Below are positions 39,536 to 61,750 of a stretch of 64,000 nucleotides of DNA, in pieces. Both the position numbers and the translations under genes were made by a program. Numbering within the stretch: position 1 is the first letter of the stretch; the number at the start of each line of letters is the position of its first letter. The notes below the pieces were generated by a model. It had not been told where the DNA came from. It did not search any database and saw only the letters and a program-made list of their open reading frames with translations. The stretch comes from Escherichia coli. GTDB lineage: Bacteria; Pseudomonadota; Gammaproteobacteria; Enterobacterales; Enterobacteriaceae. The DNA lies in assembly GCA_902500205.1 (NCBI GenBank), contig GCA_902500205.1_4868.1; one strand, given 5' to 3'.

Positions 39536-39584
39536 TACCTCTCCCCGAAGGGAGAGGTAAACCTTATTTCTTTTTCTTTTTTGT
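39536..39584. terminator. Bidirectional rho-independent terminator between convergent genes
   Basis: Hairpin tacctctccc-cgaa-gggagaggta with A-run upstream and T-run downstream. Confidence 0.75.
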
Positions 39585-46591: not shown

Positions 46592-47164
46592 ATGTCGCAG
46601 TCTTTGCAAGAAGCCTCGACGGATGTGTTGGATGTTCTTATCCAGGCGGGCACCAATAAATTAAGCCTGGAGGAGAGTAAACGACTAAAAACAGCCGCCC
46701 AGACCGCTTTGGGAAGTGATGTTGAAATTGATGTCACTAAACCTGCTAACGTGATTCTTACTTCTTTACGCCCCCTCATCCTTGAGCAGGTGGGGAACAT
46801 GGCGAAAACGTTTGAATCGCAAGCAAAAGCCGCAGTAGAAAGCATGGATGAAAAGCTCGCCAAAGAAACGTTATTGACCCTGTGGCCAAATTTGAAAGGT
46901 CCGCAGAAAGTCCTTATCGTTTTGTTGGTGCTGACCACTGTGGTGATTACTGGCGCGATGGCCTGGGACACACACCTGCATTATCCACAAGAGTTAACGG
47001 ATGTGCTGATTGTGGCGCTCTTACCTTTGTTTGCTCAGGCCGTGTTCTTTACATGGCCGATCAAGACGCTTGCTTACAATTCGATGGCCATTGGCGCCAA
47101 AGTCGTTGAATACAAGCTGAATAAGAGCAACGCGAAGCAACAGACTACCGCACCTAAAGAGTAA
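46592..47164 (+). CDS. Membrane protein (two predicted TM helices)
   Basis: GGAGG RBS; VLIVLLVLTTVVITGAMAW and LIVALLPLFAQAVFFTWPI. Confidence 0.5.
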   Translation: MSQSLQEASTDVLDVLIQAGTNKLSLEESKRLKTAAQTALGSDVEIDVTKPANVILTSLRPLILEQVGNMAKTFESQAKAAVESMDEKLAKETLLTLWPNLKGPQKVLIVLLVLTTVVITGAMAWDTHLHYPQELTDVLIVALLPLFAQAVFFTWPIKTLAYNSMAIGAKVVEYKLNKSNAKQQTTAPKE

Positions 47165-47170
47165 TTAAGC

Positions 47171-47212
47171 CCTCTTCTCCTCCTGGAGAAGAGGCTTCTT
47201 ATTTTTTTTATT
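47171..47212 (+). terminator. Rho-independent terminator
   Basis: Hairpin cctcttctcc-tcct-ggagaagagg plus T-run. Confidence 0.75.
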
Positions 47213-47238
47213 ACGTCTACGTAAATTACTGTGTAAGC
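47211..47238 (+). promoter_or_regulatory. Weak copy of class 3 element (TTACG-N14-TGTG)
   Basis: ttacgtctacgtaaattactgtgtaagc directly after terminator T-run. Confidence 0.3.
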
Positions 47239-47261
47239 ACGACCCAAAAGGAATATAAAAA

Positions 47262-47900
47262 ATGCAATTACAATTTCGTCAACGGTCTGTACTACTACCG
47301 TTTAGCGCTATATTAGGTTCGTTTACCAAAATGCTGTCTGTGGATTTTACTGCAGCTGAGAAAGAAGCGCTGTTATTGGCGGCAGTCGAAGAAGTATTGT
47401 GGGAGGCATTTTACGTAGTGCCGTTTCGTAGCTGCTTAAACGCCCCGTATGTTGAAGGGCAGTTTGTCAGCGCGCTTTCCGCCGCGATTACCAAACGTAA
47501 ACTAAATGCCATGGCGCATGTCAAAGAGATCACCGCGCAACGAGGACGGATATTCGCTGCCGTCAGAAATGTGTTAATTAAAGAAGGGTTTCTTGCAGAC
47601 TCGCTAGGTCCCGAGGTTCCTTGGGAGCCGGGTCATCCACCGCGTCAGTTCGACCACGGGTACAAGTTAAGTATAATTATGCCACGCGGTAAGCGTGACG
47701 TCTCATTGGGGAAATGGTTACAGATAAGCTGGGTTCGCCCTACTATCGATTGGCAAGAAATGTCGGTCAATCGCTATCTGGAACACCTGGCAAAAACACC
47801 GGCACAGTTTCACCGTTCAACAATCCTGCCGCTACACATGCTGTTAAAACCGTCCCTGTCATTGGCAGAAGCCATATACCTGCTTAGTGGAGAGAAGTGA
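47262..47900 (+). CDS. Hypothetical protein
   Basis: 212-aa ORF. Confidence 0.5.
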   Translation: MQLQFRQRSVLLPFSAILGSFTKMLSVDFTAAEKEALLLAAVEEVLWEAFYVVPFRSCLNAPYVEGQFVSALSAAITKRKLNAMAHVKEITAQRGRIFAAVRNVLIKEGFLADSLGPEVPWEPGHPPRQFDHGYKLSIIMPRGKRDVSLGKWLQISWVRPTIDWQEMSVNRYLEHLAKTPAQFHRSTILPLHMLLKPSLSLAEAIYLLSGEK

Positions 47901-48382
47901 TGCTTGTTATTAATGTGGTCGAGGATAAGATTCCCGCGAATGTTTATCCTGAACTGGTTGAATGGGTACGCGACTTAAACAGTATTCGCGAGGAGCCTAT
48001 TAAACTCACGATGTTTGTTGAGGATGATATCGTACGGGGAATCATGGCATGGGAACCTGGCCATTTGGTCTATATGGTTGTGCCCGAGGAATCGCGACGA
48101 GGCGGTGTCGGTAGATTTATGCTTAAGTATCTTCAGCAGAACTCCGATCGTAAACATGTCAGCTGTCGTGTTCACCCGACCAACATTCCCGCGCTGGGAT
48201 TCTTTCACCAACAAGGCTTCCAGATTGACCGATGGTATATTGCTGCTGACGGCCAACGGTATTTTCGTATGACGAACTACAATGTTATTTCGTCACACAC
48301 GCCACCGGAGGAAAAGCTTTTAACTCATTACGCTGAAAGCGTTCCCATTTTTCTCTCGATGGCAGAAGGTCATTTCGTCTAA
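47897..48382 (+). CDS. GNAT-family N-acetyltransferase
   Basis: Motif VVPEESRRGGVGRFMLKYL (acetyl-CoA binding R-x-x-G-x-G/A type); ATG at 47900 likely true start. Confidence 0.55.
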   Translation: MMLVINVVEDKIPANVYPELVEWVRDLNSIREEPIKLTMFVEDDIVRGIMAWEPGHLVYMVVPEESRRGGVGRFMLKYLQQNSDRKHVSCRVHPTNIPALGFFHQQGFQIDRWYIAADGQRYFRMTNYNVISSHTPPEEKLLTHYAESVPIFLSMAEGHFV

Positions 48383-48399
48383 ACGAGCGAGAGTGTATA

Positions 48400-48876
48400 A
48401 TGATACGTGTTGCTTACGAAACACGAGATACGGATGGAACCCGTATAAACGTCATCCGCCGTGTGGAGCTTGTTCCTCAGCATGAATTGAATATTGCAGA
48501 CAGTTCGCTTAGGGGCACTCCTGTTAAGATTCTGAATCTTACGAGACGTTCTTTTCATCACAGTAAGACTTCACCAGCAATACGGTCCAGTAAAAGAAAA
48601 AGTTATGCCGATTTAAAACATCGGTTGTCCCGGCATTTTCGTCGGAGTGCCTGGAAGGCTTTAGTTGAGATTTTGGTTGACGAGCACCTTATCCAGAGGT
48701 TGGAGTGGGAAGAAGTTCTCAAGGAAGCGGGCTATCCAACAAAACCTTTCTCTTATCACTGGCATCACTTCAAAAAACAGTTCCATGATGCCTTACAGGT
48801 ATCGCCAAACACTCGCAACATGATTCACCGTTTGGAGAAAATGGACTGGCTTCTACCCTATCTGGAAGAGGACTAG
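48400..48876 (+). CDS. Hypothetical protein
   Basis: 158-aa ORF. Confidence 0.5.
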   Translation: MIRVAYETRDTDGTRINVIRRVELVPQHELNIADSSLRGTPVKILNLTRRSFHHSKTSPAIRSSKRKSYADLKHRLSRHFRRSAWKALVEILVDEHLIQRLEWEEVLKEAGYPTKPFSYHWHHFKKQFHDALQVSPNTRNMIHRLEKMDWLLPYLEED

Positions 48877-48878
48877 AT

Positions 48879-49268
48879 ATGATGCGTGCTGTATTAGCTG
48901 TGTTTATAATTTGCGTTACTACGTCAGTATACGCGTTTACTGTTCAGGACTTCCCGCAATACAAACCAATGTGGGAAACTGACGCACCTGTGAAATTCAG
49001 CGACAAAGATGAACCAGTCGTGACAGTGGAGAAGGGTGAGTTTGCCGTGGTCAACTACGGGCGTTCTGAACTGTGTCCGGGCGGTGGCTTTTATCTCGTT
49101 AACACAAAGCGCAAGACGTACCAGCCAATAGATGCCGGTACGTGTTCGTCGAAAGTTAAAGCGACAATTGCCCCGACAGTACGAAGACATCGCAGCGTTA
49201 ATACCCACCAGTTAACTTTTTGGGTAGGTAAAGAAATTTCCGCGCGGTATCCTTTGTACGATTATTAA
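48879..49268 (+). CDS. Secreted/periplasmic protein (N-terminal signal peptide)
   Basis: MMRAVLAVFIICVTTSVYAFTVQ. Confidence 0.5.
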   Translation: MMRAVLAVFIICVTTSVYAFTVQDFPQYKPMWETDAPVKFSDKDEPVVTVEKGEFAVVNYGRSELCPGGGFYLVNTKRKTYQPIDAGTCSSKVKATIAPTVRRHRSVNTHQLTFWVGKEISARYPLYDY

Positions 49269-49276
49269 ACACAGCG

Positions 49277-49314
49277 TATAGGGGCTTCGGCCCCTATACT
49301 GTTTATTATTTTCC
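49277..49314 (+). terminator. Rho-independent terminator
   Basis: Hairpin tatagggggc-TTCG-gcccctata (same core as terminator at 67) plus T-rich tail. Confidence 0.7.
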
Positions 49315-49359
49315 TGTGAAGTATTATGACCCCCCTTAATCAAATACCAGGAGCGAGGC

Positions 49360-49977
49360 ATGTCTTTTGTTATTGACTTTAACCACCATCATAGTCAAAC
49401 CTTGCTCGATTTAGTCAATGCTTTTAATGCTGAAACCGTTTATACGCCCCTGACCACAGAACGTATCCGAGTGGAGAGTTATGGTCCACCGGAACCGGAC
49501 GGTCGTGTAAGTGCTTTGCTGACTAATAAGAGTAAGCCTGATGACTATGTGGTTGTACGCTACCGCAAATTGAGCCTCAATGATATAATCACGTTGAAGC
49601 CTGAACATCTCACGTGGTTTGATTTGTCGAAAGGTAAACCGGCCGATTTGCGTGTATGGTCCGAAGCCGCGATGGCCAGTTTTGAATCAGCCTGTGCAGA
49701 ACGTGGTATCATCGTAAGTAAGGCGTGGGAAAACCCTGCGCAATGCCACGTAGAGTACGACATCCTGACCGATCGATACATCCTCGTCTATGAATGTGAA
49801 TCGTTTGTTTACGAATCACGCACACGTATTACGCTACCGTACCATATCGGCCAAGACTTAACCAAGACAACGCTGCCTGGTCTGGAATACGACTTGGCTG
49901 GTTTCTGGGGGCGTAAGCTGTTAGAAGAAGTGACTATCACGAAGCTTAACGGTTTTCGTTATCGTGTGTTTGTTTAA
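49360..49977 (+). CDS. Hypothetical protein
   Basis: AGGAG RBS; 205 aa. Confidence 0.55.
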   Translation: MSFVIDFNHHHSQTLLDLVNAFNAETVYTPLTTERIRVESYGPPEPDGRVSALLTNKSKPDDYVVVRYRKLSLNDIITLKPEHLTWFDLSKGKPADLRVWSEAAMASFESACAERGIIVSKAWENPAQCHVEYDILTDRYILVYECESFVYESRTRITLPYHIGQDLTKTTLPGLEYDLAGFWGRKLLEEVTITKLNGFRYRVFV

Positions 49978-49981
49978 GACA

Positions 49982-50023
49982 CTACCCTCGCCCGTTTAGC
50001 GAGGGTAGGTATTTATTTTTTTC
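49982..50023 (+). terminator. Rho-independent terminator
   Basis: Hairpin ctaccctcgc-ccgttta-gcgagggtag plus T-run. Confidence 0.75.
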
Positions 50024-50058
50024 TTACGAATCGTCCACTCCGTATAGGAGGTAAGTCC

Positions 50059-50658
50059 ATGAAAAAGATTTATAAAATTGCGGTAATCGGTTCTCGGAAG
50101 ACTGATGAAGATACCATGTCTGAAATGTACATGCGATTGTTACGTGGGTTTAATGCGCTGCACGCCAAAGATTACACGATTCATTTTTCCTCTGGCGGCT
50201 GCTGGTGTGGTCCAGACCAATTGCAATTCCGATTTGCCCGACAGTGGGCGAATACAATCGACCAAGATACCGGCAAGAAAGTGGTGTGGGATGATGAGTT
50301 CATTTGTTACCTACCCGATGAGAAAAAGCTCTGGCTCAGGAAACAGAATCCCAACGTAGAGTTCCGTGTAATCCCTCAGGATGACCGCTATCGTGAGATA
50401 GTAGGTAAGCTTCATCCCGCGCCAGAAAAGCTCCAGGAGTTCGCCTGGGCGCTTCACGGGCGTAATCTGAATATAATTATGGGCGATGATTTAGCAACGC
50501 CTGTAGACGCAGTCTATTACTCTGCGCCTTTAGATAAACAAGGTAATCCGACCGGCGGTACTGCAATGGGCGTGAAATACGCTAAGCAGTGTGGTATTCC
50601 TTGTTACCACCATGCGCTTGAAGGACATCTGTGGCTTGAGAGCTTGTGCTTATTATGA
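50059..50658 (+). CDS. Hypothetical protein, possibly Rossmann-like (DprA/LOG-type SLOG) nucleotide-binding fold
   Basis: AGGAGG RBS; N-terminus KIAVIGSRK...FSSGG. Confidence 0.3.
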   Translation: MKKIYKIAVIGSRKTDEDTMSEMYMRLLRGFNALHAKDYTIHFSSGGCWCGPDQLQFRFARQWANTIDQDTGKKVVWDDEFICYLPDEKKLWLRKQNPNVEFRVIPQDDRYREIVGKLHPAPEKLQEFAWALHGRNLNIIMGDDLATPVDAVYYSAPLDKQGNPTGGTAMGVKYAKQCGIPCYHHALEGHLWLESLCLL

Positions 50659-50688
50659 CCACGTTGCCTTTAATCAGAGGTCGCTATT

Positions 50689-50961
50689 ATGCAAACTACC
50701 AGTTTAGCTCGTCGTTTGTGGGAAGCGTTCTTCCCTACGCCGTCAAAACCCATTAAGAAGGTGACTAGCCTTCGCTTGTTCCCAGGCACTGAAGATGAGT
50801 TCTTCGATTACCTGGAACGTCACGGTTTTGATTCGAAAGTCGCACCACAAGAAAATGACCCAATTCAGACAGTTTACACCACGCCGGATACGGGAGAGAT
50901 ATTTGCCTTGTGTGTTCGATGGCCACATCGCAACTACTACTATACTTTGACGCAGATGTAA
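50689..50961 (+). CDS. Hypothetical protein
   Basis: AGAGG RBS; 90 aa. Confidence 0.45.
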   Translation: MQTTSLARRLWEAFFPTPSKPIKKVTSLRLFPGTEDEFFDYLERHGFDSKVAPQENDPIQTVYTTPDTGEIFALCVRWPHRNYYYTLTQM

Positions 50962-50971
50962 GGAGCAGGGG

Positions 50972-52105
50972 ATGTCGACGCTCGATTTAGATTTAGAAGT
51001 CCTGACTGACGACTACGATCGCCTGGTCGCACTCGAAGGTCTGGGAGTTAAGCCCGACTTCCCTGCGGTTTGCGCGATTCGTCAGCGTTGGTGCTTAACC
51101 GACGACGGTGAAGATATGTTGGTTGCTCGTGAATCGCGCGAAGCGATGGAGCGTGCTCAGTTTATGACTGATACTGACCCGCGGGCTGGCATCCATCGCG
51201 CAGCAGGGCGCATTACTGCGAAAGCTGTTAAAGGTACTGGAAAGTTAGTGGGAGCTGGACTAGGCGCAACCGCAAAGGGCGCGGGTAAACTTTCGAAAAA
51301 GCTCGCATTACGCTTTTACGATTTCGCGGAAGCGCTAGCGAAAGAACAAGCCGACCGTTTGAAAGAAATAACTTCGAAAGCCGCATTCATGGAACGTAAG
51401 CTCAATAAGCTCAAAGCACGAATGTCGTTATTGGATGACCACAAAACACTCGCTGCGGTCGACGTTCACACGAGTAGCTGGACGTCTAAAGTTTGCTTTG
51501 AAGATCGACCCGATTTTGAAGCGTGTGTTAAGTTTTCTAAACGAACAAATGCGTACGAAGGCGTCGTGCAAAAGTACACGGTTTACACACGCACCGCTCT
51601 GAAGAAAAGCAAAGCATTCGAAGGGCCAGGCTTAAAACAAATCAGCAAGTCCACGAACTGGGCAGTTAAGCGCGCTGCTGGGTTGCTTGGCATCATCGAT
51701 CCCTTTAAAAAGGTGGAAGCTTTTCCTGTCCCTGGAAATATCGTTGTGGTTGAGCACCATAGTGGTAAGGTCAGTTGGGCAATTGCGCGTGACGGTGAGT
51801 ATGGTGAAACCATTAAATCGCTGGATATGCATCAGTGTGGGAAAGCAATAGAGGCTGTGGAAGCACTTATCAAATCTATTGCAGCACGCGGAACAAAGAA
51901 CCGCGTTGTGGGTTACACCGGCATTTACGAAGAAGTGGAAGCGATGAAGTCCGAGCTTAAGAACCTGGAAGGGGATGAGCTGAAAGAAGCCACTTTGCGC
52001 TACCGCAATGCAATGGCAATGGAAGACGCATTCACCACGGCGTTGGTACGCGTGGCGGAGGGTCTAATGGAGTGGACGAAGCAATCGTTGGCTGAGGTGA
52101 AATGA
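50972..52105 (+). CDS. Hypothetical protein
   Basis: 377-aa ORF with GGAG RBS. Confidence 0.55.
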   Translation: MSTLDLDLEVLTDDYDRLVALEGLGVKPDFPAVCAIRQRWCLTDDGEDMLVARESREAMERAQFMTDTDPRAGIHRAAGRITAKAVKGTGKLVGAGLGATAKGAGKLSKKLALRFYDFAEALAKEQADRLKEITSKAAFMERKLNKLKARMSLLDDHKTLAAVDVHTSSWTSKVCFEDRPDFEACVKFSKRTNAYEGVVQKYTVYTRTALKKSKAFEGPGLKQISKSTNWAVKRAAGLLGIIDPFKKVEAFPVPGNIVVVEHHSGKVSWAIARDGEYGETIKSLDMHQCGKAIEAVEALIKSIAARGTKNRVVGYTGIYEEVEAMKSELKNLEGDELKEATLRYRNAMAMEDAFTTALVRVAEGLMEWTKQSLAEVK

Positions 52106-52569
52106 TGAAAATTGTTTTTGTCACCAAGCCCAACTCTCCGTATGGAAAGAAATACTACGCGGACTTGTTAGGACTACACAACAAGTTATACGACGATCAG
52201 AAAATAAAACTTGCCGACTTAAACGGTCGTGAAGGGTTTAATCAAATCTTAAAACTGGAGGAGGTTTGGGGTGAAGGTACGCTGTGCGCTTGCGCCGTTG
52301 ATGACCGTGGTGTGGCTGTTGGTTTCATCACCTTCGGCTACACCAAAAAGGGACAACGTTTCCTCTGGGTATATAACTTTTTTGTAGATGAATCGGTTCG
52401 TTCACAAGGCGTTGGCCATGAACTAATCGAAGCCGTAGAAAACTACGGCAAATCAAAAGGCTGCGCATGGATGCAGCTTAACGTGCTCGGTAATAATGAC
52501 CGTGCTATTGCGTTTTATGAACGTTTCGGTTTTCGAACTGAATACCAGGATATGGTAAAGGAGCTTTAA
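52102..52569 (+). CDS. GNAT-family N-acetyltransferase
   Basis: VRSQGVGHELIEAVENYGKSKGCAWMQLNV...AIAFYERFGF. Confidence 0.6.
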   Translation: MMKIVFVTKPNSPYGKKYYADLLGLHNKLYDDQKIKLADLNGREGFNQILKLEEVWGEGTLCACAVDDRGVAVGFITFGYTKKGQRFLWVYNFFVDESVRSQGVGHELIEAVENYGKSKGCAWMQLNVLGNNDRAIAFYERFGFRTEYQDMVKEL

Positions 52570-52570
52570 C

Positions 52571-53179
52571 ATGGTGGCTGTCCGCAGCGTGCCACATCAG
52601 ACTGGCTCGCGATATACTTTTTGTGTAAAGCGTTTTGGGGCAAGAAATCGCCCTGGTTGGAAGGTGGTACGTGCGATGGGACAGTTCTGGCAAATACCAC
52701 CCGGCACGTTAAAATATTTTTCAGTAGACAGAATAATCCGGTTCTTAAACGCGGCTGACCCAAGTCAACGCTCCAGTTTTATGGCAGGGATTGTTTGTCG
52801 TCCCGATGGGAAAACACGCGATGCAACCACTCGTGGAATCTACTGGACAGGACAGAATGCGTTTCAGGTTGGCTTACCTTGCCTGAAGTGTGAAGTGACA
52901 CCGTTTAATGGTCCCTACGCCGATGCGCACTTCACCGGTATCTTTGTGTCGTTCCCAGACGACCCGTCTTTAAACTACTTTTTATCAGTGGACAAAGACG
53001 TCAGTATTGATACCTTTTACAAATACTTGTTGTTTTACAGCCGGTATATCCGCGTGACTCCTGTGCATGAAGATTGGTATTATAAAAATCCCTTGAACTA
53101 TGGGAGGGACAGGAGACTAGAAGGATGTTCTATCGAGAGCTTCAACTCTGTACCGCAGCGCTCCATGGCGCTAATGTGA
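52571..53179 (+). CDS. Hypothetical protein
   Basis: 202-aa ORF. Confidence 0.5.
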   Translation: MVAVRSVPHQTGSRYTFCVKRFGARNRPGWKVVRAMGQFWQIPPGTLKYFSVDRIIRFLNAADPSQRSSFMAGIVCRPDGKTRDATTRGIYWTGQNAFQVGLPCLKCEVTPFNGPYADAHFTGIFVSFPDDPSLNYFLSVDKDVSIDTFYKYLLFYSRYIRVTPVHEDWYYKNPLNYGRDRRLEGCSIESFNSVPQRSMALM

Positions 53180-53496
53180 GCAAGAACGGGGACCTGGAAG
53201 ACGTCGCGCAAGCCTTACGGGTTGTGCCGGAGGTTGACCAGGTCGACATCGACGCTAAGTATTTAGGCGACGGCGTAAAGCGTATTCAGTTGACCGTGCG
53301 AGCCAAACATGGCAGCTGCTCGTTACATTTCCGAGTCAGTGCGGATTATTTCCTGGTACTGCGCTCCACATTCAGTCACGATGGTCGGACTCACCGGGTT
53401 CGGTGGATGCACGACATTACTAAATTTGGCTACCCGCTTGCAGAACAACGTAAAGTCGTCCATGACTTTATGGCTGCAGTCGTTGCGGGGTTTTAA
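53125..53496 (+). CDS. Hypothetical protein (55-nt out-of-frame overlap with previous gene)
   Basis: ATG 53125 preceded by GAAGG RBS. Confidence 0.4.
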   Translation: MFYRELQLCTAALHGANVSKNGDLEDVAQALRVVPEVDQVDIDAKYLGDGVKRIQLTVRAKHGSCSLHFRVSADYFLVLRSTFSHDGRTHRVRWMHDITKFGYPLAEQRKVVHDFMAAVVAGF

Positions 53497-53508
53497 GGGG
53501 AAACTGTG

Positions 53509-54105
53509 ATGTCTGAGATGATTCTCGATTCGCTGTTTTTGATTACGGTTGCAAACATCAATAAAAACGGCAATCTTCCAGAATACGTAGACATAAGTCG
53601 TCATGGCTTTAAGCGTCGCTATCAAATCGGTAAGGTGTTAGAAATTGCCTGTTTAGTAACGAACATGCGTAGACCGGTGGAAGGCTGTAGCGTTAAACAT
53701 GCACAGATGATACTCGGACGTGCTATTTCAGAAGTACGTCGTAAGCGTCGTCGTGCACCGTATCGCTTTTATCCTAACTCTACCAAACAGGTGGTGGGCG
53801 AGGGTGAAGGTGTGGTTGATTTGCGCGAGGCCAGTTGTAATGTAGGCGGTATTGCACGTGACTGGTTAATGAGCATTATCAGTAAGCATCCACGTACACC
53901 TACGCCGCAAGAAGGACAGGCGGTACTCGCACTTATGCGTAAGACCCATTTGGTGATTACTGATACACCAAACCAGGCAGCACGAATGCAGCACTATTTG
54001 GCATGTCGTGGCTTCACCACACTTGCAGTACCTTCTGAATACACAGCTGATATTAAACTTCCGCCAGTCCCAGAGTGGTCTGAACCGACAGTTGATCATC
54101 AGTGA
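53509..54105 (+). CDS. Hypothetical protein
   Basis: AAGGGGA RBS; track start GTG 53506. Confidence 0.5.
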   Translation: MSEMILDSLFLITVANINKNGNLPEYVDISRHGFKRRYQIGKVLEIACLVTNMRRPVEGCSVKHAQMILGRAISEVRRKRRRAPYRFYPNSTKQVVGEGEGVVDLREASCNVGGIARDWLMSIISKHPRTPTPQEGQAVLALMRKTHLVITDTPNQAARMQHYLACRGFTTLAVPSEYTADIKLPPVPEWSEPTVDHQ

Positions 54106-54110
54106 GTTAT

Positions 54111-54149
54111 ACCCACTCCTTCGGGAGTGGGTCGACTCTATTCTTTTTT
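54111..54149 (+). terminator. Rho-independent terminator
   Basis: Hairpin acccactcc-TTCG-ggagtgggt plus T-run. Confidence 0.75.
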
Positions 54150-54172
54150 GGATAGATGTTATCTTAGGGAGA
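54150..54172 (+). promoter_or_regulatory. Phage promoter-like element, class 2
   Basis: GGATAGATGTTATCTTAGGGAGA immediately after terminator. Confidence 0.5.
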
Positions 54173-54266
54173 CGTGCAAAAATTACGTTTCATCCTTAGC
54201 ATATGCTAGAAGCCGTTGTGAGTCGGTTAAAACTCACCAACTTAAACTTAAAAGCGAGTAAACAAA

Positions 54267-55031
54267 ATGTCAAAACTCAATAAAGCAGCAACCAAAGAAT
54301 GGCTTTCCGTACCTACCGCAGATGGTCAGTATCGCTACGTATTCACGTATGACGAAAATGACCTGACGGCAAAAGGTATTCCGCACATGTTAAGTCACAA
54401 ACTGATTAACAGCGTGACCGGTGCCACCTTAGTAGGTTCCGGCGGAAGGACAATCTTTTGTGCCCCCAGTTGGGATCAAACTGAACTGACCAAGAAAATG
54501 CTCGGTGAACTCCGGGCGGTTTCCGCACGTCTGTTCTTTAAGCTGATTGCCAGAAAACCGGCGCTATGGGATGCATGGTCTCAACACAATCTCGAGGCAT
54601 TGCGTGGGGAGTGTCTGAATTACGTATTGGTCGAAGAAGTGATTGATAACTTCTTCGCTAACGTGATGAAAACCGAACGACTGCGTAAGCCGAACACCGA
54701 CGGTTATTCGTTTGTCTCCGTTAAGAGCAGCGAACTGATTCGGGGTGAGTTTGCAGGGCATGTCCTTTCGGTAACTCGGAACCTGAGTTTCTTTGGCCAG
54801 CCTTTCAGTGAGCCAGTTGTTCAGGTAACTTATGATTTCCGTTTACCGTTTACTGTTCGGAATGAGTTTGACCCAGGTCAAGTTTCGTTGAAGTTTTTAT
54901 ATCCTCTCCAGTCATGGCCGTTATTGAAGAGGTTCTTAGCTGAGCCCCGTGTAGCTGCGGTGCTGCAAGCGTGGATTGATTCATGGCCAGAAGGCATTGA
55001 GGAAAAATCGAAAACGCGAGTTGACTTCTAA
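54267..55031 (+). CDS. Hypothetical protein
   Basis: 254-aa ORF. Confidence 0.55.
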   Translation: MSKLNKAATKEWLSVPTADGQYRYVFTYDENDLTAKGIPHMLSHKLINSVTGATLVGSGGRTIFCAPSWDQTELTKKMLGELRAVSARLFFKLIARKPALWDAWSQHNLEALRGECLNYVLVEEVIDNFFANVMKTERLRKPNTDGYSFVSVKSSELIRGEFAGHVLSVTRNLSFFGQPFSEPVVQVTYDFRLPFTVRNEFDPGQVSLKFLYPLQSWPLLKRFLAEPRVAAVLQAWIDSWPEGIEEKSKTRVDF

Positions 55032-55037
55032 GTAAGC

Positions 55038-55073
55038 TAGGCACTCTTCGGAGTGCCTATTATTTTTTTTTTC
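55038..55073 (+). terminator. Rho-independent terminator
   Basis: Hairpin taggcactc-TTCG-gagtgccta plus T-run. Confidence 0.75.
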
Positions 55074-55103
55074 TTTACGTATGCTCGCTATATTGTGACA
55101 CCA
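55074..55103 (+). promoter_or_regulatory. Promoter-like element, class 3 (TTTACG-N14-TTGTGACA)
   Basis: tttacgtatgctcgctatattgtgacacca; near-identical architecture at 57408. Confidence 0.4.
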
Positions 55104-55136
55104 CTACAATTAATTAAACTTTTGGGGAAGAATAAA

Positions 55137-55760
55137 ATGTTAAACTCAGTGGCGCTGGATGGTCCAGATTTTTCTGGCAAATCAACACTCGCGAAAATGA
55201 TTCAAGCGATGTTGCGCTCCGCTGGCGTTAATGTCATCATCGTCAATCACCCGACGAATACCACTGAAGCCGGTATTAGTGCACGCTCTCTGGTTATCCA
55301 GCACGCTTCTAACGAACGCATTGCTAAAGCGATGTGTCTGGATTTCCAATACACGATGGATTTCGTTGTACCAGAGCACGATGTCGTTATTTTTGACCGT
55401 TTTTGTCAATCGACTATTGTCTACCAGGGCGTCGATGGTAAAGGGGAAGTTTTCCGTTCGCGGGTATTAGACCACATTAACGCACCAAAGCTTTACGTGG
55501 CAACCGATGTATCTTACGAAACCGCCACAGAACGCTTTAAGAAGCGCGTAGAGGCCCAGGGCAAGAACTGGGATGATGAGGTACTGACAGCGAAGTATCT
55601 GCGCTCACAGACTGATTGGGACGCGTTACGCGACCACTACCGTTTTGCTTTCCACATCACCACAGATGGCGGCGATAAGTTCCCGCTGATGCGTGTTACG
55701 GCTGACGACGATATAGCGTTACAAGCCGCGCGTATCGTTGAACGTATTCTGGCAGGTTAG
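55137..55760 (+). CDS. tmk: Thymidylate (dNMP) kinase
   Basis: P-loop LDGPDFSGKSTLAKM at N-terminus; track ORF 55053 (GTG inside terminator) trimmed to ATG 55137. Confidence 0.6.
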   Translation: MLNSVALDGPDFSGKSTLAKMIQAMLRSAGVNVIIVNHPTNTTEAGISARSLVIQHASNERIAKAMCLDFQYTMDFVVPEHDVVIFDRFCQSTIVYQGVDGKGEVFRSRVLDHINAPKLYVATDVSYETATERFKKRVEAQGKNWDDEVLTAKYLRSQTDWDALRDHYRFAFHITTDGGDKFPLMRVTADDDIALQAARIVERILAG

Positions 55761-55766
55761 TTGTAC

Positions 55767-55803
55767 CCCTCTTACCTTCGGGTAAGAGGGTATTGTCTTT
55801 TTT
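55767..55803 (+). terminator. Rho-independent terminator
   Basis: Hairpin ccctcttacc-TTCG-ggtaagaggg (same stem as 28966) plus T-run. Confidence 0.75.
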
Positions 55804-55846
55804 ACAGATCGTAACAGTCTTATGCTTTTTGCTTCCAGTCCACTAA

Positions 55847-55872
55847 ATTTCAGATATATATTACTTAGGTGA
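55847..55872 (+). promoter_or_regulatory. Phage promoter-like element, class 1
   Basis: ATTTCAGATATATATTACTTAGGTGA; downstream leader AATCGACTATTAATCTAAAGGAGTATT shared with 27078 copy. Confidence 0.55.
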
Positions 55873-55922
55873 GAGTTACTACTAAACTCTCTAATCGACT
55901 ATTAATCTAAAGGAGTATTCTA

Positions 55923-56288
55923 ATGCGTTTTAAACATCAAACCGTTGTGTTGGCAAAGAAAGCATTTCTGGTTCGTCTCTCTTACATTATTACTCGTGTC
56001 ACTGCGAAGGATGTTACGCAGAAAGACATTGCATTGTTGGTAGGCTGCTCACCGTCACAAATCTCTGCGATTAAAAATGAACGCGAGAAAGCCGTGACTA
56101 TCGAAACTCTGATGCGTGTTGCCGATACACTGCGCCTGAATTACGAAATCGTTTACCGTTCCATTAACGGCAAATGCCGCCATAGCTTCAAAATTGAATC
56201 CTGCACCGACTACATGAATAACTGTCCTATCCGGGTACGAGAAACAGGACTTAAAGTCATGGCACGTAAACCTTCTGCAGTGATGTAG
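55923..56288 (+). CDS. XRE-family helix-turn-helix transcriptional regulator
   Basis: HTH signature TQKDIALLVGCSPSQISAIKNER; first gene after promoter-like element. Confidence 0.5.
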   Translation: MRFKHQTVVLAKKAFLVRLSYIITRVTAKDVTQKDIALLVGCSPSQISAIKNEREKAVTIETLMRVADTLRLNYEIVYRSINGKCRHSFKIESCTDYMNNCPIRVRETGLKVMARKPSAVM

Positions 56289-56299
56289 GGAGCAAACGT

Positions 56300-56686
56300 A
56301 TGAATTGGTTTGTAAATGGTATCACCCGTCGCGTGATGACGGAAGAGGATGATCGATGTAAACATCTTAAAGTGGGCTCTATAGCCCCGCGCTATACGGC
56401 AGAGTGCGACCCATGGGGCCGCGAAACGTACTACATGTGCGAGAACTGCTGGGAAAAGCTGCAGGCTGAAATTGCAGCTGAAGAAGTGGTCTGCGACGAT
56501 TGCAAAGGTACCTTCCCGAAACGAGATACCGTTGAATGGAAATGGTACGACTTTGACCCCAGTCAAGGGGATAAAGAACTTTGTATCTGTAATAACTGCG
56601 TGTCTTTACCGACACATTTAAACCGTGTAGAGAATGACCGTCGGGCATTTGAACACGACTTTCCAGAAGCAGCTTTCTGGGATTAA
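56300..56686 (+). CDS. Cys-rich zinc-ribbon protein
   Basis: CKHLK...CENCWEK...CDDCKG...CICNNC. Confidence 0.45.
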   Translation: MNWFVNGITRRVMTEEDDRCKHLKVGSIAPRYTAECDPWGRETYYMCENCWEKLQAEIAAEEVVCDDCKGTFPKRDTVEWKWYDFDPSQGDKELCICNNCVSLPTHLNRVENDRRAFEHDFPEAAFWD

Positions 56687-56712
56687 CTAGTGTAAACCTT
56701 AAGGAGTATACC

Positions 56713-57369
56713 ATGGCGAAGGCCCCTAAAACTGTAGCAAAAGATTCAATGGCAAGCAGCGCGGTTAAATCCACAAAAACGCGCACCACTGAATCCACGC
56801 GTACATCTAGCATTCCTAAACCGGATGTAATTGTACCGATCAGCGAGCGTCTGAAAACAATTCACATCGAGCGCGAATATCCGATTGACCTTGGTCAGGA
56901 AATCGTTGCGGTTAACCTTGGTAGCGACGTACGCTTTACCATCTATAAAGGCGCGCATCTGAACAACATGGTGCTAACCCGTGGCGATGAAGTTATCGGT
57001 CTGTCTCGTTACGACACGCAAATCGAAAACATCTATCCGGTGTTTGCAGTAGCGATGTTGCGTTTGTTTATGCAGGATAAAGCCGACCTTTGTGGTCAGC
57101 TTGCGGGTATGGCGGATCGTGTTGGTCATATTCTGCCGACGCTGGTGAAACTGTACCCAGTTACGATTGACGTGGCGTTTACTACGGTAGACAACAACCA
57201 CGGTTATATCGTACTGACCAAAGACGGTAAAGTTATCGCTGGTAATCTGACTGATAACGAAGTGCAGAAGCATATGGACAAATTTGCGTTCATGGTGAAT
57301 CGCTTGGCGCACGTCAGTGTCAAACATTCCGAAACTTGGACGACGCTTGTCTCCAAACCGGAACTGTAA
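56713..57369 (+). CDS. Hypothetical protein
   Basis: RBS CTTAAGGAGTAT; 218 aa. Confidence 0.55.
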   Translation: MAKAPKTVAKDSMASSAVKSTKTRTTESTRTSSIPKPDVIVPISERLKTIHIEREYPIDLGQEIVAVNLGSDVRFTIYKGAHLNNMVLTRGDEVIGLSRYDTQIENIYPVFAVAMLRLFMQDKADLCGQLAGMADRVGHILPTLVKLYPVTIDVAFTTVDNNHGYIVLTKDGKVIAGNLTDNEVQKHMDKFAFMVNRLAHVSVKHSETWTTLVSKPEL

Positions 57370-57371
57370 TC

Positions 57372-57407
57372 ATTAAGGGGTCTTCGGACCCCTTAATTTT
57401 TTGTCTT
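57372..57407 (+). terminator. Rho-independent terminator
   Basis: Hairpin attaaggggtc-TTCG-gaccccttaat plus T-run. Confidence 0.75.
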
Positions 57408-57437
57408 TTTACGCATTATCCTCATGTTGTGACAGCA
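57408..57437 (+). promoter_or_regulatory. Promoter-like element, class 3
   Basis: tttacgcattatcctcatgttgtgacagca. Confidence 0.4.
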
Positions 57438-57458
57438 ATACCTTTTGAGGGCATTACA

Positions 57459-58457
57459 ATGAAAACTGTGGCTAAATTGTTCCGCAGCAGCATTCGCTCT
57501 GCCGAGTTCCAAAATAACGTCGGTAGCGATACTGTACGAGCACGCCGCCTAAAAGAGTTTCTAAAGGACGAGACTTATTCTGTTTACGTGGTGAAGAATA
57601 AAGAAACCTGGGAGGGTTATTTAGTGGCCACCTATCGACACGGTGACCCTACACTAACCTGTCACTATTTTGAGGAGTTTGTACCTGGGGCGTTCGATAA
57701 AGTTGGTTTGGCCCTTGTGCTCGACCATACCGGATTCGAATATATGTCGTGTCCAGCACCTACTGACGATGTTGAACAAAAACTGGTCGAAAAAGGGTTT
57801 GTTCTTTCAGATATCGTTTGGGCATGTCATTCTAAACTGTTTGACAAAGTAATCACCGCATCGGAAATCAAGATTATTTCTGGTGATGCATACGCAGAAC
57901 TTACCAAGGAAGATAAAGACGTTATCCTGAATTTGATTAGCGGTGCAATTTGCGAAGAGCTAGAATACGATATGCGTGGCTACTATACGCACATTGGCCC
58001 GTTAGCAGAAACAGTAATAGCAAGAATTCAGCACGCTAATGTGGAGACTGCAATTTGGCGAGACGGCCATGATATCGTCGGTATTGCCCAGATGCGCTTG
58101 GTTACACCAGGCGTCGTTGAACTTTCTGGTTTAACCGTTGCACCAACACACCGTAAACGTGGCATTGGCCGCCGGCTAATGGGCGCGCTATTCGATTTCG
58201 CACAACGTCATTCCGACCAAGTCTATATTGAAACAGCTGCTGATAATAATCCAGCAAATCACCTGTACGGCAACATCTTACGTTGCAAGCAGGTACTGCG
58301 TACACTAACGTTGAAACGCGATCCTGAACTTATTAGCTGGAAACGGGTGAATGGGAACCGCGCCGATCGAGTGCTGAAAGAAGAACCTAGCATTCCGGTG
58401 GAGACTACAACCAGGCTGACTATCAGTGATATGTTTCAATCTGGCATGAGAGGATGA
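57459..58457 (+). CDS. Two-domain protein with C-terminal GNAT acetyltransferase domain
   Basis: LTVAPTHRKRGIGRRLMGALFDFA...NNPANHLYGN; track ORF 57336 begins inside the terminator, trimmed to ATG 57459. Confidence 0.5.
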   Translation: MKTVAKLFRSSIRSAEFQNNVGSDTVRARRLKEFLKDETYSVYVVKNKETWEGYLVATYRHGDPTLTCHYFEEFVPGAFDKVGLALVLDHTGFEYMSCPAPTDDVEQKLVEKGFVLSDIVWACHSKLFDKVITASEIKIISGDAYAELTKEDKDVILNLISGAICEELEYDMRGYYTHIGPLAETVIARIQHANVETAIWRDGHDIVGIAQMRLVTPGVVELSGLTVAPTHRKRGIGRRLMGALFDFAQRHSDQVYIETAADNNPANHLYGNILRCKQVLRTLTLKRDPELISWKRVNGNRADRVLKEEPSIPVETTTRLTISDMFQSGMRG

Positions 58458-58463
58458 TATCGG

Positions 58464-59282
58464 GTGATAAGACCAATTTTAAAATGGATGGGTGGTAAGA
58501 GTCGCGTACTGCCCGAGTTGCTACAGGTGCTTCCAGATGCTGAGTATTTCGTTGAACCGTTTGTGGGTGCAGGGTCAGTGTTTTTAAACACTAAATACCC
58601 GAACTATATTCTCGGCGACACGAACCCAGACTTAATCGAGTTACTGACCATGGCGCGCGATCGTCCGGAAGCGCTGATTCTGGAAGCAAAGGCGCTCTTT
58701 GCAAATGGGCTGGACCGCGGTCTGTACATGAAACGGCGTGAGGAATTTAACAGCGAGACAACCACGGGGAAACCTAATCTCCAGCGCGCTGCGATGTTCC
58801 TGTATCTTACACGTCATGGTTACAACGGCTTGTGCAGATACAATCAGTCAGGTGGATTTAATGTCCCGTATGGTCAACATCCGAACGGTGCCTATTTCCC
58901 TGAAGAGGAAATTCTGGCGTGGGCAAAACGTTGTTCGGAAACCAACGTCGAGCTGCTCTGCGCCGACTTCCGCGACATCCTAAATAAGTGCCCATCTAAC
59001 GCAGTGATATACGCTGACCCGCCATACATCCCACTTTCGGATACGGCTAAACATGCGCAGTATCACAGCAAAGAATTTTCACAAGCTGACCACCGCGAGT
59101 TAGCGAAACTTTTAAAACAACAAGCTGCCGATGGCAATAAGGTCGTTCTGTCAAACGCAGATACGTTACTCACACGCGATATTTATTACGGCTTTACTTG
59201 GCGCGAAGTTCAGGTAGGTCGATATATGTCTGCGGATGCGAATAAGCGTAAAGCGGTGACGGAGCTAATCGGCACCTTATAA
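58464..59282 (+). CDS. dam: DNA adenine (N6) methyltransferase, Dam family
   Basis: ILKWMGGKSRVLPEL, FVEPFVGAGSVFLNT, catalytic ADPPYIPLS; GTG start with GAGAGGA RBS. Confidence 0.85.
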   Translation: MIRPILKWMGGKSRVLPELLQVLPDAEYFVEPFVGAGSVFLNTKYPNYILGDTNPDLIELLTMARDRPEALILEAKALFANGLDRGLYMKRREEFNSETTTGKPNLQRAAMFLYLTRHGYNGLCRYNQSGGFNVPYGQHPNGAYFPEEEILAWAKRCSETNVELLCADFRDILNKCPSNAVIYADPPYIPLSDTAKHAQYHSKEFSQADHRELAKLLKQQAADGNKVVLSNADTLLTRDIYYGFTWREVQVGRYMSADANKRKAVTELIGTL

Positions 59283-59291
59283 GGTACCAAC

Positions 59292-60095
59292 ATGCAACTA
59301 TTTAATCTATACGGTATGGACAAAAACGACCTGACCGTAGAGTTTAGTGGTCGGTTGACCACCTTGGGGCAACTCCGCGAACGGATTCAAGATTTGCGAC
59401 CCGTCGCAGACCAAGAAGACGATCATTGGTTAGTGTTGAGCAATAGCGGTCGTGCGCAAATGTATTTTCGTGGATGTCGTTCAGGTATTGTTTACTACAT
59501 CTACGAGCTGCACGTGCTCTCCGAGCCCCTGTTCCACGAGTGGAAGCGTTTAACGCGACTCCTGGAAGTGCAGATGCTCGATATTACCTGCTTTCCGCAT
59601 GACACTGAGCACGCAGCACTATACCAGCGCCTGGGGTTCGAAGCTGTAACGAAGCGTGTGGAGATTACTGTCAGTCCGAAATACGGTTTTACGTCAGACC
59701 CATCGGTTGTCCCGTTGGAGACATTGTCATTAGAACAAACCCAGGATGTTTGCTATCTAATGCGACCTACGCTAAAAGACGCAGGTACGCGTGAGATGTT
59801 GGGTGAATTAGCAAATGGTTTTGTCTCTGCGTTCGTGGGGTTGCACGGCCAGAAACCGTTTTCATTAATGCTTTATAAGGAATTCCCGAAGAGCATCATT
59901 ACTGAGCAATTCTGCTGCCAAACTTTTGACCCGGTTGCTTACTCGGTAGAGTTTCTAAAACACTACCACGCTATTTTGCATTTGGCGGGACAGAAAGGTA
60001 AGAAGGTCAACATGGGTGTTGCGATAGAGCACGAGTTTCCTTCTATCGAAGGGTTAGAGTATCGTGTAATCACGCATCACTACACCCTTGCGTAA
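59292..60095 (+). CDS. Hypothetical protein
   Basis: 267-aa ORF. Confidence 0.5.
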   Translation: MQLFNLYGMDKNDLTVEFSGRLTTLGQLRERIQDLRPVADQEDDHWLVLSNSGRAQMYFRGCRSGIVYYIYELHVLSEPLFHEWKRLTRLLEVQMLDITCFPHDTEHAALYQRLGFEAVTKRVEITVSPKYGFTSDPSVVPLETLSLEQTQDVCYLMRPTLKDAGTREMLGELANGFVSAFVGLHGQKPFSLMLYKEFPKSIITEQFCCQTFDPVAYSVEFLKHYHAILHLAGQKGKKVNMGVAIEHEFPSIEGLEYRVITHHYTLA

Positions 60096-61708: not shown

Positions 61709-61750
61709 GGCCCGCCTCCTTGCCCACGGGTGAGGAGGTCCCTTTTTATT
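61709..61750 (+). terminator. Rho-independent terminator
   Basis: GC-rich hairpin ...cctcct...aggagg... plus T-run. Confidence 0.6.

Follow-up and report, generated by a model that had tools for sequence, protein, structure and literature searches.

The three GNAT acetyltransferase genes of this DNA lie in a conserved stretch of a chimallin-encoding jumbo phage, equivalent to genes 87–109 of phage SPN3US. On balance, the stretch is better read as a mosaic of seven independently terminated units, with GNATs that have different jobs, than as one island. The original prediction had treated these genes as a candidate counter-defence and host-reprogramming island. Its domain assignments stand, and the genes it listed are real, with coordinates that agree exactly or to a few bases; the single-island interpretation is not supported. 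Because the stretch is conserved, is already known from sequenced SPN3US-type phages and combines virion genes with genes for nucleotide metabolism and other enzymes, spread over several units, a dedicated anti-defence island does not follow from its content. The block is mostly ordinary, already annotated biology, and a few details are new.

Gene order and transcription units

The window (the whole 64-kb stretch of DNA analysed here) comes from an SPN3US-like, nucleus-forming jumbo phage, with 96–97% nucleotide identity to published genomes. The cluster under study corresponds to SPN3US genes 88–105, and the wider block to the orthologs of genes 87–109. Gene order is the same in SPN3US (JN641803 / NC_027402), EC001 and Proteus phage 7, which are near-identical members of Seoulvirus, and protein identity is 94–100% for all block genes except gp99. 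EC001 differs: it has an additional GNAT paralog, and its gp103 is longer; the window has neither feature. The order of the block genes is common to three genera, Seoulvirus, Machinavirus and Wellingtonvirus, and thus resembles core synteny rather than a variable island. GenBank annotation of SPN3US-type genomes already names the acetyltransferases, Dam, the thymidylate kinase and the regulator. SPN3US is a nucleus-forming phage with a gene for chimallin, the nuclear-shell protein, which contains an inactive GNAT-like domain.

All listed genes are on one strand (+), as predicted, and all features below are given on that strand. Hairpins appear to divide them into seven transcription units: gp87–90, gp91, gp92–98, gp99, gp100, gp101–103 and gp104–109. 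The three GNAT genes fall in three different units. A scan for terminators, together with inspection of the sequence between the genes, places a hairpin terminator at 57372–57397, between the putative early unit (gp101–103) and the GNAT3–Dam unit, and similar ones at 47171–47194, 49276–49299, 49982–50008, about 54112–54131, 55038–55059, 55767–55790 and 61714–61739. Promoter and terminator functions are predictions from sequence.

The “class 1 promoter” reported ahead of the HTH gene is there, as a 26-nt early-promoter-like motif, ATTTCAGATATATATTACTTAGGTGA, at 55847–55872. The motif, ATTTCAGATATATATTACYTAGGTGA, recurs in three near-identical copies in the 64-kb window (~17910, ~27030 and 55847), each time with a gene downstream. 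It fits the AT-rich promoter type described for early transcription by the virion RNA polymerase in jumbo phages that encode RNA polymerases (PMC7598289). Its position is kept in SPN3US and EC001; in SPAsTU, a copy lies directly upstream of an extra small gene, which precedes the HTH gene. The motif suggests that the unit would be an early transcript of the virion RNA polymerase. Its first gene (gp101 ortholog, 55923–56288) encodes an XRE-type HTH protein (HTH_3, 31.4 bits vs a cut-off of 23; phrog_7126), conserved in Caitlin and Kwan. The second encodes a Cys-rich protein (gp102 ortholog, 56300–56686) with C21-x-H23 and CxxC pairs at 48/51, 66/69 and 99/102, all kept in SPAsTU and Caitlin; from these residues, it probably binds two zinc ions. 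The HTH half of the predicted HTH and zinc-ribbon pair is confirmed; the zinc-ribbon half has conserved CxxC motifs but only sub-threshold zinc-ribbon matches in the profile search (DZR_2, E 0.026; SprT C-terminus, E 0.0013). The unit ends with gp103 (56713–57369), which has a K-, S- and T-rich N-terminus and no match in the Pfam search. It is fast-evolving, being 33% identical to the SPAsTU copy where its neighbours are 75–88% identical. SPN3US gp103 was seen only as a trace by mass spectrometry and classed as “non-virion” (PMC10052503).

Two single-gene units precede the early-type motif. One holds gp99 (54267–55031), which belongs to a multi-copy family and is present here as a swapped allele; it is 40% identical to SPN3US gp99 and 100% identical to the EC001 copy, whereas the flanking genes are 98–100% identical. 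Paralogs of gp99 are present in Caitlin and Kwan. The other holds the thymidylate kinase (gp100 ortholog, 55137–55760), whose assignment is borne out by PF02223 (E 6e-16; 59 bits vs a cut-off of 27) and phrog_761, with TIGR00041 at 47.7, under its cut-off of 83. It fits a dTTP pathway with two other enzymes of the phage, thymidylate synthase and DHFR.

GNAT genes and virion proteins

Profile searches, which the original prediction named as the test of its GNAT assignments, uphold all three genes (47897, 52102 and 57459), with Pfam matches for each. GNAT1 (47897–48382), 99% identical to SPN3US gp88, is a single-domain protein with the acetyl-CoA motif RRGGVG. It matches Acetyltransf_1 at 25.9 bits (cut-off 20.7) and the acetyltransferase family phrog_7861, and is near-identical to the “putative acetyltransferase” of PDB 7DQG (E 1e-108), so a crystal structure already exists. 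GNAT1 is absent from the list of SPN3US virion proteins determined by mass spectrometry, and would be a small non-virion enzyme with a job that differs from those of GNAT2 and GNAT3.

GNAT2 (gp95 ortholog, 52102 or 52105–52569) belongs to the phage spermidine N-acetyltransferase (SAT) family (Acetyltransf_1, E 9.5e-18). It is 99% identical to SPN3US gp95, 71% to a phiEaH2 protein and 53% to a Caitlin protein, and is the positional ortholog of these two Erwinia phage SATs, following an internal head protein gene. SAT activity has been proven for the phiEaH2 and Caitlin proteins (Li et al. 2023, PMC9992855). SPN3US gp95, by contrast, made no N-acetylspermidine in E. coli in the same assay (PMC9992855), so a polyamine substrate is doubtful for the SPN3US clade. 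The SPN3US copy is also set apart by its packaging in the head, of which the polyamine paper (PMC9992855) makes no mention. It was detected as a head protein by mass spectrometry, with 41 PSM in virions, 32 in heads and an intact N-terminus, MK (PMC10052503 supplement). The preceding gene, the gp94 ortholog (50972–52105), encodes an internal head protein (phrog_2497, E 2.5e-88); SPN3US gp94 is a head protein by mass spectrometry (PMC10052503), and protease gp245 possibly cleaves it. The same data place gp97 and gp109 in the head (PMC10052503). The gp91 ortholog (49360–49977) is a tail protein in its own unit, bounded by the terminators at 49276–49299 and 49982–50008; SPN3US gp91 yielded 41 PSM from virions but 0 from heads that lack tails (PMC10052503).

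What might a head-packaged acetyltransferase do? The GNAT2 start codon overlaps the gp94 stop codon (TGATG), and GNAT2 is likely translationally coupled to gp94 and packaged into the head, as is its 99%-identical SPN3US counterpart. Given this location, it may enter the cell alongside the DNA; what it acetylates, in the capsid or as infection starts, may be a protein or a polyamine. Phage T4 packages the ADP-ribosyltransferase Alt in its head and injects it. Alt modifies RNA polymerase, and the Rac acetyltransferase of phiKMV-like phages is a phage GNAT able to target host RNA polymerase. The likeness of gp95 to Alt is one of concept, a modifying enzyme in the head being at hand when infection begins; gp95 has no sequence relation to either Alt or Rac, and its injection and host target are hypothetical.

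GNAT3 (gp104 ortholog, 57459–58457) is a 332-aa protein whose N-terminal part is an alpha/beta domain; its GNAT domain is C-terminal and limited to about residues 195–275 (Acetyltransf_1, E 3e-14). The C-terminal domain carries an RKRGIG motif that is intact in Seoulvirus. Its profile matches are ordinary protein or small-molecule GNATs (RimI, MshD and Eis), and its family is found only in Seoulvirus and Erwinia jumbo phages. The AlphaFold model of GNAT3 is poor (pLDDT 50), so the protein is read as a two-domain GNAT from the BFVD model of the Kwan ortholog, which can be superposed along its whole length on the tandem-GNAT model of gp106 (E 1e-14, TM 0.65). gp106 (59292–60095) is a cryptic tandem-GNAT-fold protein according to a confident AlphaFold model and its fold matches. 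Known tandem-GNAT enzymes (mycothiol synthase MshD, MAB_4324, VipF and N-myristoyltransferases) are 5–10% identical to gp106, with no detectable sequence similarity. Unlike them, gp106 lacks the acetyl-CoA pyrophosphate-binding motif, Q/R-x-x-G-x-G/A, in both halves when its sequence is read against the model, and its family is confined to one phage lineage. Its structural matches include several 213–314-aa proteins of the same Erwinia jumbo phages.

It is possible, though unproven, that gp107 (60105–60917) is another tandem-GNAT-like paralog. It resembles gp106 in size and position and has GNAT-like “Y..MGF” and “L..NGW.PE” segments; an hhalign comparison aligns the two colinearly without reaching significance (E 0.055). 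The gp106 model is also matched by the BFVD model of a 265-aa Erwinia phage protein (E 6.5e-7), which has the length of the Caitlin gp107 ortholog and may be that protein. GNAT3 would open an operon that continues with Dam, with gp106 and perhaps gp107 as tandem-GNAT folds lacking the acetyl-CoA motif, and with the head protein gp109.

Dam and GATC depletion

The Dam-type methyltransferase (gp105 ortholog, 58464–59282) lies where it was predicted, directly 3′ of the third GNAT gene, beginning 6 nt past its stop codon. It matches MethyltransfD12 (PF02086, E 3e-54) and TIGR00571 (258 bits vs a cut-off of 115), and aligns over its full length with E. coli Dam (2G1P, E 5e-58). K9, the YNGLCRYN stretch, NVP, DPPY and FVGAGS are aligned and conserved. 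The protein shares its SAM motif, DPPY and GATC-contacting residues with the E. coli Dam/DpnII M1 group of D12-class GATC methyltransferases, but its score of 248 does not reach the 441 that NCBIfam sets as equivalog cut-off for enterobacterial Dam, and it is only distantly similar to T4 Dam (E 2e-9). The enzyme is an orphan, with no restriction enzyme gene adjacent and “orphan MTase” as its best PADLOC model, the only PADLOC match in the block. Dam is among the best-conserved block genes (86% and 54–55% identity).

This phage Dam also differs from known Dam enzymes in being encoded by a nucleus-forming phage with a 2.6-fold GATC-depleted genome. GATC, its predicted site, is the lowest of the 256 tetranucleotides (120 observed vs 311 expected, ratio 0.39, z about −10.8); the ratio is 0.23–0.37 in relatives, all of which keep Dam. 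The window also lacks several 6-bp palindromes. For enterobacteriophages, it is an established idea that GATC is avoided and that MutH cuts phage DNA when it is unmethylated (PMC5014478). Dam may methylate GATC on progeny DNA, which would replicate within the phage nucleus, where host Dam is probably absent and phage Dam presumably present. Methylation and GATC avoidance would together limit nucleases of unmethylated GATC, such as MutH and MboI/DpnII-type enzymes. The strong depletion can equally be read as a sign that Dam protects incompletely, or that its protection is irrelevant.

Alternative readings of the block

Could the block still be a coordinated counter-defence and host-reprogramming island, with GNATs that acetylate host proteins of defence or transcription, and Dam acting in anti-restriction? 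This is unlikely, even though the genes share one strand, the HTH unit has an early-type promoter ahead of it, some phage GNATs, Rac among them, are known host-takeover enzymes, and gp99, gp103, GNAT3 and gp107 are fast-evolving or swapped, like arms-race genes. The missing palindromes suggest exposure to restriction enzymes. At least three GNAT-fold genes are clustered, but only modestly non-randomly: of the four acetyltransferases annotated in the 240 kb of SPN3US, three lie within 10.6 kb (simulation p about 0.02–0.04). Against an island acting as a unit stand the seven transcription units, the three-genus synteny, the head genes, tail gene and dTMP kinase inside the block, the metabolic (polyamine) activity of the GNAT2 family and the lack of any defence-related profile match, in PADLOC or otherwise, beyond the methylase.

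Smaller groupings fare no better. Non-catalytic scaffolding, with gp106, gp107 and the N-terminal half of GNAT3 resembling chimallin's inactive GNAT-like domain and the “GNAT cluster” reflecting local duplication without shared enzymology, is improbable. The motif loss in gp106, its lineage-limited family and the 213–314-aa structural matches, which suggest a paralog family, favour it; the intact RKRGIG of Seoulvirus GNAT3 and the non-significant sequence-level paralogy of gp104, gp106 and gp107 do not. Even less probable is a DNA-modification module in which the GNAT folds, in the manner of the phage Mu protein Mom, attach an acyl group to bases or process one there, alongside N6-methyladenine. 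GNAT3, Dam, gp106 and gp107 are tightly packed (gaps of 6–10 nt or overlaps) in an order constant across the three genera, and GNAT-superfamily DNA modifiers (Mom) are known in some jumbo phages. However, no Mom-family profile match was found, GNAT3 having its RimI, MshD and Eis resemblance instead, and avoidance of GATC and several palindromes runs contrary to blanket base hypermodification. Moreover, Dam evolves slowly and GNAT3, gp106 and gp107 fast, a pattern that does not resemble a co-adapted enzyme complex.

Within the favoured mosaic of separate units, a counter-defence role is plausible for Dam and for the head-packaged GNAT2. Host manipulation or self-protection is compatible with GNAT2 in the head, with an early-promoter HTH/zinc-protein/gp103 unit that ends in a fast-evolving gene, and with Dam in a genome that avoids GATC.

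Conserved gene order and seven terminated units

The block studied here, from gp87 to gp109 in the numbering of Salmonella phage SPN3US, is made up of known kinds of gene in a phage group that has already been sequenced. At least 80% of positions 47000–60000 is matched at 96–97% identity (megablast) by 23 phage genomes, including Escherichia phage EC001, Proteus phage 7 and SPN3US (genus Seoulvirus). SPN3US, a jumbo phage that encodes chimallin and forms a nucleus, has virion and non-virion RNA polymerases of its own. The original prediction described a counter-defence and host-reprogramming island at 47897–59282, corresponding to SPN3US genes 88–105, and we widened the analysis to genes 87–109. 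The genes it listed are confirmed, while its interpretation of them is partly supported. The cluster itself repeats the existing annotation of SPN3US-type phages, and little changes from that alone. The more useful leads are a GNAT acetyltransferase packaged in the phage head, a cryptic tandem-GNAT family adjoining the Dam methylase gene, and the presence of Dam beside strong GATC avoidance.

Protein identity to SPN3US is 94–100% for all block genes except gp99. The order internal head protein–GNAT2...thymidylate kinase...HTH...GNAT3–Dam–gp106–gp107–gp108 also occurs in Salmonella phage SPAsTU and in the Erwinia phages Caitlin (Machinavirus) and Kwan (Wellingtonvirus). Variable accessory content is not seen between these relatives: the order is kept across three genera, and the only varying items are gp99 (an allele swap), gp103 and an extra GNAT gene in EC001. 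From sequence comparison, the block is best described as conserved synteny, not a variable island. As a descriptive picture, it is securely a conserved mosaic in which structural and enzyme genes are mixed with genes for nucleotide metabolism and early regulation.

How is the block transcribed? In each intergenic gap of more than 80 nt there is a G+C-rich hairpin with a T-run behind it, and these predicted terminators split the block into seven units: gp87–90, which includes GNAT1; gp91; gp92–98, which includes gp94 and GNAT2; gp99; gp100 (thymidylate kinase); gp101–103 (the HTH protein, the zinc protein and gp103), with an early motif in front; and gp104–109 (GNAT3, Dam, gp106, gp107, gp108 and gp109). 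The three GNAT genes therefore lie in three different units. With seven terminated units, conserved synteny and several members that have other documented roles, the idea of one coordinated island is not supported. Apart from methyltransferase models that match Dam, and weak matches to HTH models, PADLOC returned nothing defence-related; this search found no known anti-defence or defence-related families of the kind expected in a dedicated anti-defence island. What is left of the counter-defence proposal is that single genes may serve host manipulation or self-protection; a coordinated module finds no support.

The early motif, ATTTCAGATATATATTACYTAGGTGA, is present in three near-identical copies in the 64-kb window (17910–17935, 27030–27055 and 55847–55872), each upstream of a gene, and the predicted “class 1 promoter” does exist as a motif. 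The motif is similar to the AT-rich early promoters read by the virion RNA polymerases of this phage group and is likely to be an early promoter of this type; the HTH/zinc protein/gp103 unit would then be an early transcript. The copies at ~27040 and 55857 also have in common a downstream leader, AATCGACTATTAATCTAAAGGAGT, right in front of the start codon, even though the genes behind them are unrelated. A degenerate version of the motif, GATAGATGTTATCTTAGGGAGA, was noticed by eye in the gap upstream of gp99. A T-run followed by TTACG lies at 47202, 50016, 55063 and ~57400, directly 3′ of hairpin terminators, and further copies lie at 34256, 42738, 53536 and 63949. These eight distinct plus-strand sites compare with ~1.7 matches expected from block shuffles, in a tally that includes overlapping matches and so inflates the observed and expected numbers alike. 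This element may represent a further class of promoter, perhaps comparable to the TATG late promoters of phiKZ.

The three GNAT assignments stand. Each gene scores above the PF00583 gathering cut-off of 20.7 bits (GNAT1, 47897–48382, 25.9 bits; GNAT2, 52105–52569, 65.0 bits; GNAT3, 57459–58457, 53.7 bits), and each has the acetyl-CoA pyrophosphate-binding motif Q/R-x-x-G-x-G/A after strand β4, read from the sequences as RRGGVG, RSQGVG and RKRGIG, respectively. Erwinia orthologs of GNAT3 carry Q-N-Q/K-R-x-G at this motif. The GNAT three-dimensional fold was likewise confirmed, the poor AlphaFold model of GNAT3 (pLDDT 50, from a six-sequence alignment) having been left out of the fold search. 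GNAT1 is near-identical to PDB 7DQG, for which a literature search found no publication. Because three of the four acetyltransferases annotated in the 240 kb of SPN3US are in the block, their clustering is non-random, but only modestly so (p ~0.02–0.04). The fourth is at NC_027402 172536–173024, ~1.4 kb upstream of a macro-domain gene (174459–174959). Pairing of a GNAT toxin with an HTH or RHH antitoxin, as in AtaT/TacT-type systems, was considered and rejected: the genes are neither adjacent nor co-transcribed, and two genes and a terminator lie between the gp101 HTH gene and GNAT3. On either side of GNAT1 and GNAT2, the neighboring genes (gp87, gp89, gp94 and gp96) have no Pfam match of any kind, and thus neither GNAT has an HTH or RHH partner beside it.

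GNAT2 as a head protein

The virion proteins of SPN3US have been determined by mass spectrometry, and the list is in the supplement of Scheuch et al. 2023 (PMC10052503). There, gp91 is placed in the tail and gp94, gp95, gp97 and gp109 in the head; gp98, gp100, gp103, gp104 and gp108 appear only as non-virion traces; and gp88, gp92, gp99, gp101, gp102 and gp105–107 are not in the virion list (PMC10052503). The ortholog of GNAT2, gp95, was detected with ~41 PSM in virions and 32 PSM in tailless heads, counts close to those of its neighbor gp94, and its N-terminus (MK...) is intact (PMC10052503). The intact N-terminus sets the start of GNAT2 at 52105, overlapping the gp94 stop codon (TGATG). Among the SPN3US papers examined, information on gp88, gp94, gp95 and gp99–107 was found only in this supplement; the main texts name neither gp88, gp95 nor gp99–107, and mention gp94 once.

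GNAT2 is an ortholog of the characterized spermidine N-acetyltransferases of Erwinia phages phiEaH2 and Caitlin, with 71% and 53% identity, respectively, and the same genomic position. Both of these proteins form N-acetylspermidine in E. coli; the SPN3US protein YP_009153389, 99% identical to GNAT2, was negative in the same assay (Li et al. 2023, PMC9992855). That study says nothing of virion location, and the SPN3US papers examined do not identify gp95 as an acetyltransferase. The link between head packaging of gp95 and spermidine acetylation by its close orthologs is made neither in the SPN3US proteomics papers examined nor in the polyamine paper. GNAT2 would be a capsid-borne acetyltransferase, acting when the genome enters or earlier and with polyamines or proteins as substrates.

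Further GNAT2-like genes exist among the relatives. EC001 has an extra GNAT paralog (positions 9072–9566 of EC001 locus L002), 32% identical to GNAT2, between the internal head protein gene and GNAT2, and two GNAT2-like places are also found in Salmonella phages JN03 and 1252.

Dam, GATC avoidance and the genes beside Dam

The gene directly downstream of GNAT3 (58464–59282) does encode a D12-class Dam-family methylase, as originally predicted. It scores 258 bits against TIGR00571 (cut-off 114.85) and 185 bits against PF02086 (E 3e-54), has both the SAM-binding FxGxG motif (FVGAGS) and the catalytic DPPY, and aligns full-length with E. coli Dam (E 5e-58). In a phmmer alignment, the phage protein is identical to E. 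coli Dam (2G1P) at the aligned positions that read GATC in the E. coli enzyme (K9, Y119-N120-G121-L122, R124 and P134), so GATC is its predicted specificity. Its score of 247.9 bits does not reach the cut-off of 441 for the enterobacterial Dam equivalog NF008152. Judged by these profiles, it is a Dam-family member and not a host-type ortholog. Dam is among the best-conserved genes of the block (86% and 54–55% identity).

GATC is the most under-represented of the 256 tetranucleotides in the window, with 120 occurrences against 311 expected from trinucleotide frequencies (ratio 0.39, z ~−10.8). In SPN3US, EC001, SPAsTU, Caitlin and Kwan, which all retain Dam, the homologous regions have ratios of 0.23–0.37. 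For enterobacteriophages, both GATC avoidance and MutH cleavage of phage DNA that lacks methylation are established ideas (PMC5014478). Nothing was found in the literature on SPN3US methylation or GATC, and no publication on Dam in nucleus-forming phages. The combination of a well-conserved E. coli-type Dam with GATC as the most avoided tetranucleotide of a nucleus-forming phage bears on the way such phages cope with nucleases directed at GATC while host Dam may have no access to the nucleus. Host Dam is probably kept out of the phage nucleus; phage Dam would methylate progeny DNA inside it, and GATC avoidance would be a second line of protection beside methylation.

GATC counts peak at 32000–40000 (15 and 18 per 4 kb, versus 4–10 elsewhere). 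By coordinate offset to SPN3US, this stretch corresponds to the major head protein gene and its neighbors, and its 32–34 kb segment has the highest G+C content of the window (0.548). Three 6-bp palindromes, AGTACT, GAGCTC and GCATGC, are absent from the window where 7–9.5 of each are expected (Poisson p 7e-5 to 7e-4), and CTCGAG has a single copy where 6.5 are expected. This scarcity suggests restriction-site avoidance despite the nucleus-forming lifestyle.

Dam shares its unit with GNAT3, in which a GNAT domain is recognizable in the C-terminal half only, and with two genes directly after it, gp106 (59292–60095) and gp107 (60105–60917), neither of which has a Pfam or NCBIfam profile match to the GNAT superfamily. 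The structural model of gp106, annotated as a hypothetical protein, predicts a tandem-GNAT fold missed by sequence profiles; the acetyl-CoA motif is absent from both halves in sequence and model. Only 11 representatives of the gp106 family were found among 1.84 billion proteins, and the family is confined to this phage lineage. For gp107, a tandem-GNAT fold and paralogy to gp106 are hypotheses: it has the same size as gp106 and GNAT-like terminal motifs, but the profile comparison between the two is not significant (hhalign, E 0.055). Comparisons among GNAT3, gp106, gp107, gp103 and GNAT2 by BLASTP and hhalign gave only a generic GNAT3–GNAT2 domain similarity (E 5e-5), and homolog searches with GNAT3, gp106 and gp107 retrieved relatives from this phage lineage only, none with an informative Pfam domain. 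These three proteins diverge much faster than Dam, with 59–78% identity in SPAsTU and 26–31% in Erwinia phages where an ortholog is detectable.

What might these genes do together? One reading joins the packaged GNAT2 to the Dam operon, and as a whole we consider it unlikely. In it, gp95 would be made together with gp94 and, either as the genome enters or within the head, would have polyamines or a host or phage protein as its substrate, as the acetylation counterpart of Alt, the injected enzyme of T4. The operon would serve to mark DNA in the phage nucleus, as a module specific to this lineage whose tandem-GNAT pseudoenzymes assist or regulate an orphan GATC methylase in a genome under strong GATC avoidance. 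Two alternatives concern the operon and are minor possibilities. The GNAT-fold genes around Dam could have a Mom-like role in DNA acylation; or gp106 and gp107 could serve purely as scaffolds.

Other genes and variable positions

The predicted thymidylate kinase (gp100) scores 59 bits against PF02223, above the threshold of 27, and 47.7 against the TIGR00041 equivalog, below the cut-off of 83.25, and has the P-loop GPDFSGKST. A role as a dUMP kinase for uracil-containing DNA was rejected: the phage also encodes thymidylate synthase and DHFR. The XRE-type HTH protein (gp101) is likewise above its Pfam threshold. Its proposed zinc-ribbon partner, gp102, is indeed Cys-rich, with eight conserved metal-ligand candidates (C-x-H and three CxxC motifs), but has no significant profile match.

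The gp99 gene (54267–55031) is 40% identical to SPN3US gp99 between flanks that are 98–100% identical, and it is 100% identical to the EC001 copy, a pattern that points to allele replacement by recombination. The gp99 family is multi-copy in Caitlin and Kwan. In several SPFM-series Salmonella phage records (LR5359xx), the region spanning GNAT3, gp106 and gp107 aligns only in multiple short fragments and has annotated ORFs of odd length, most likely from frameshift errors in those assemblies.

The “DprA-like” gp92 (50059–50658; phrog_768, E 2e-47) is highly conserved (84% in SPAsTU, 74% in Caitlin) and has no Pfam, NCBIfam or PDB sequence match; the annotation is retained. It comes first in a unit that includes the genes of head proteins gp94, gp95 and gp97. 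Judged by eye, the N-terminus of gp90 (48879–49268), MMRAVLAVFIICVTTSVYA, resembles a signal peptide or membrane anchor. No gene of the block evolves faster than gp103 (56713–57369), the last gene of the early unit, which is 33% identical to its SPAsTU copy where its neighbors are 75–88% identical; K, S and T are abundant in its first ~40 residues, and EC001 has a longer version (positions 14173–15099 of EC001 locus L002; 927 versus 657 bp). Erwinia phage proteins of 213–215 aa weakly match the gp106 GNAT model (E ~1e-7, TM 0.32–0.37), and one of them has the length of the Kwan gene taken as the positional counterpart of gp103.
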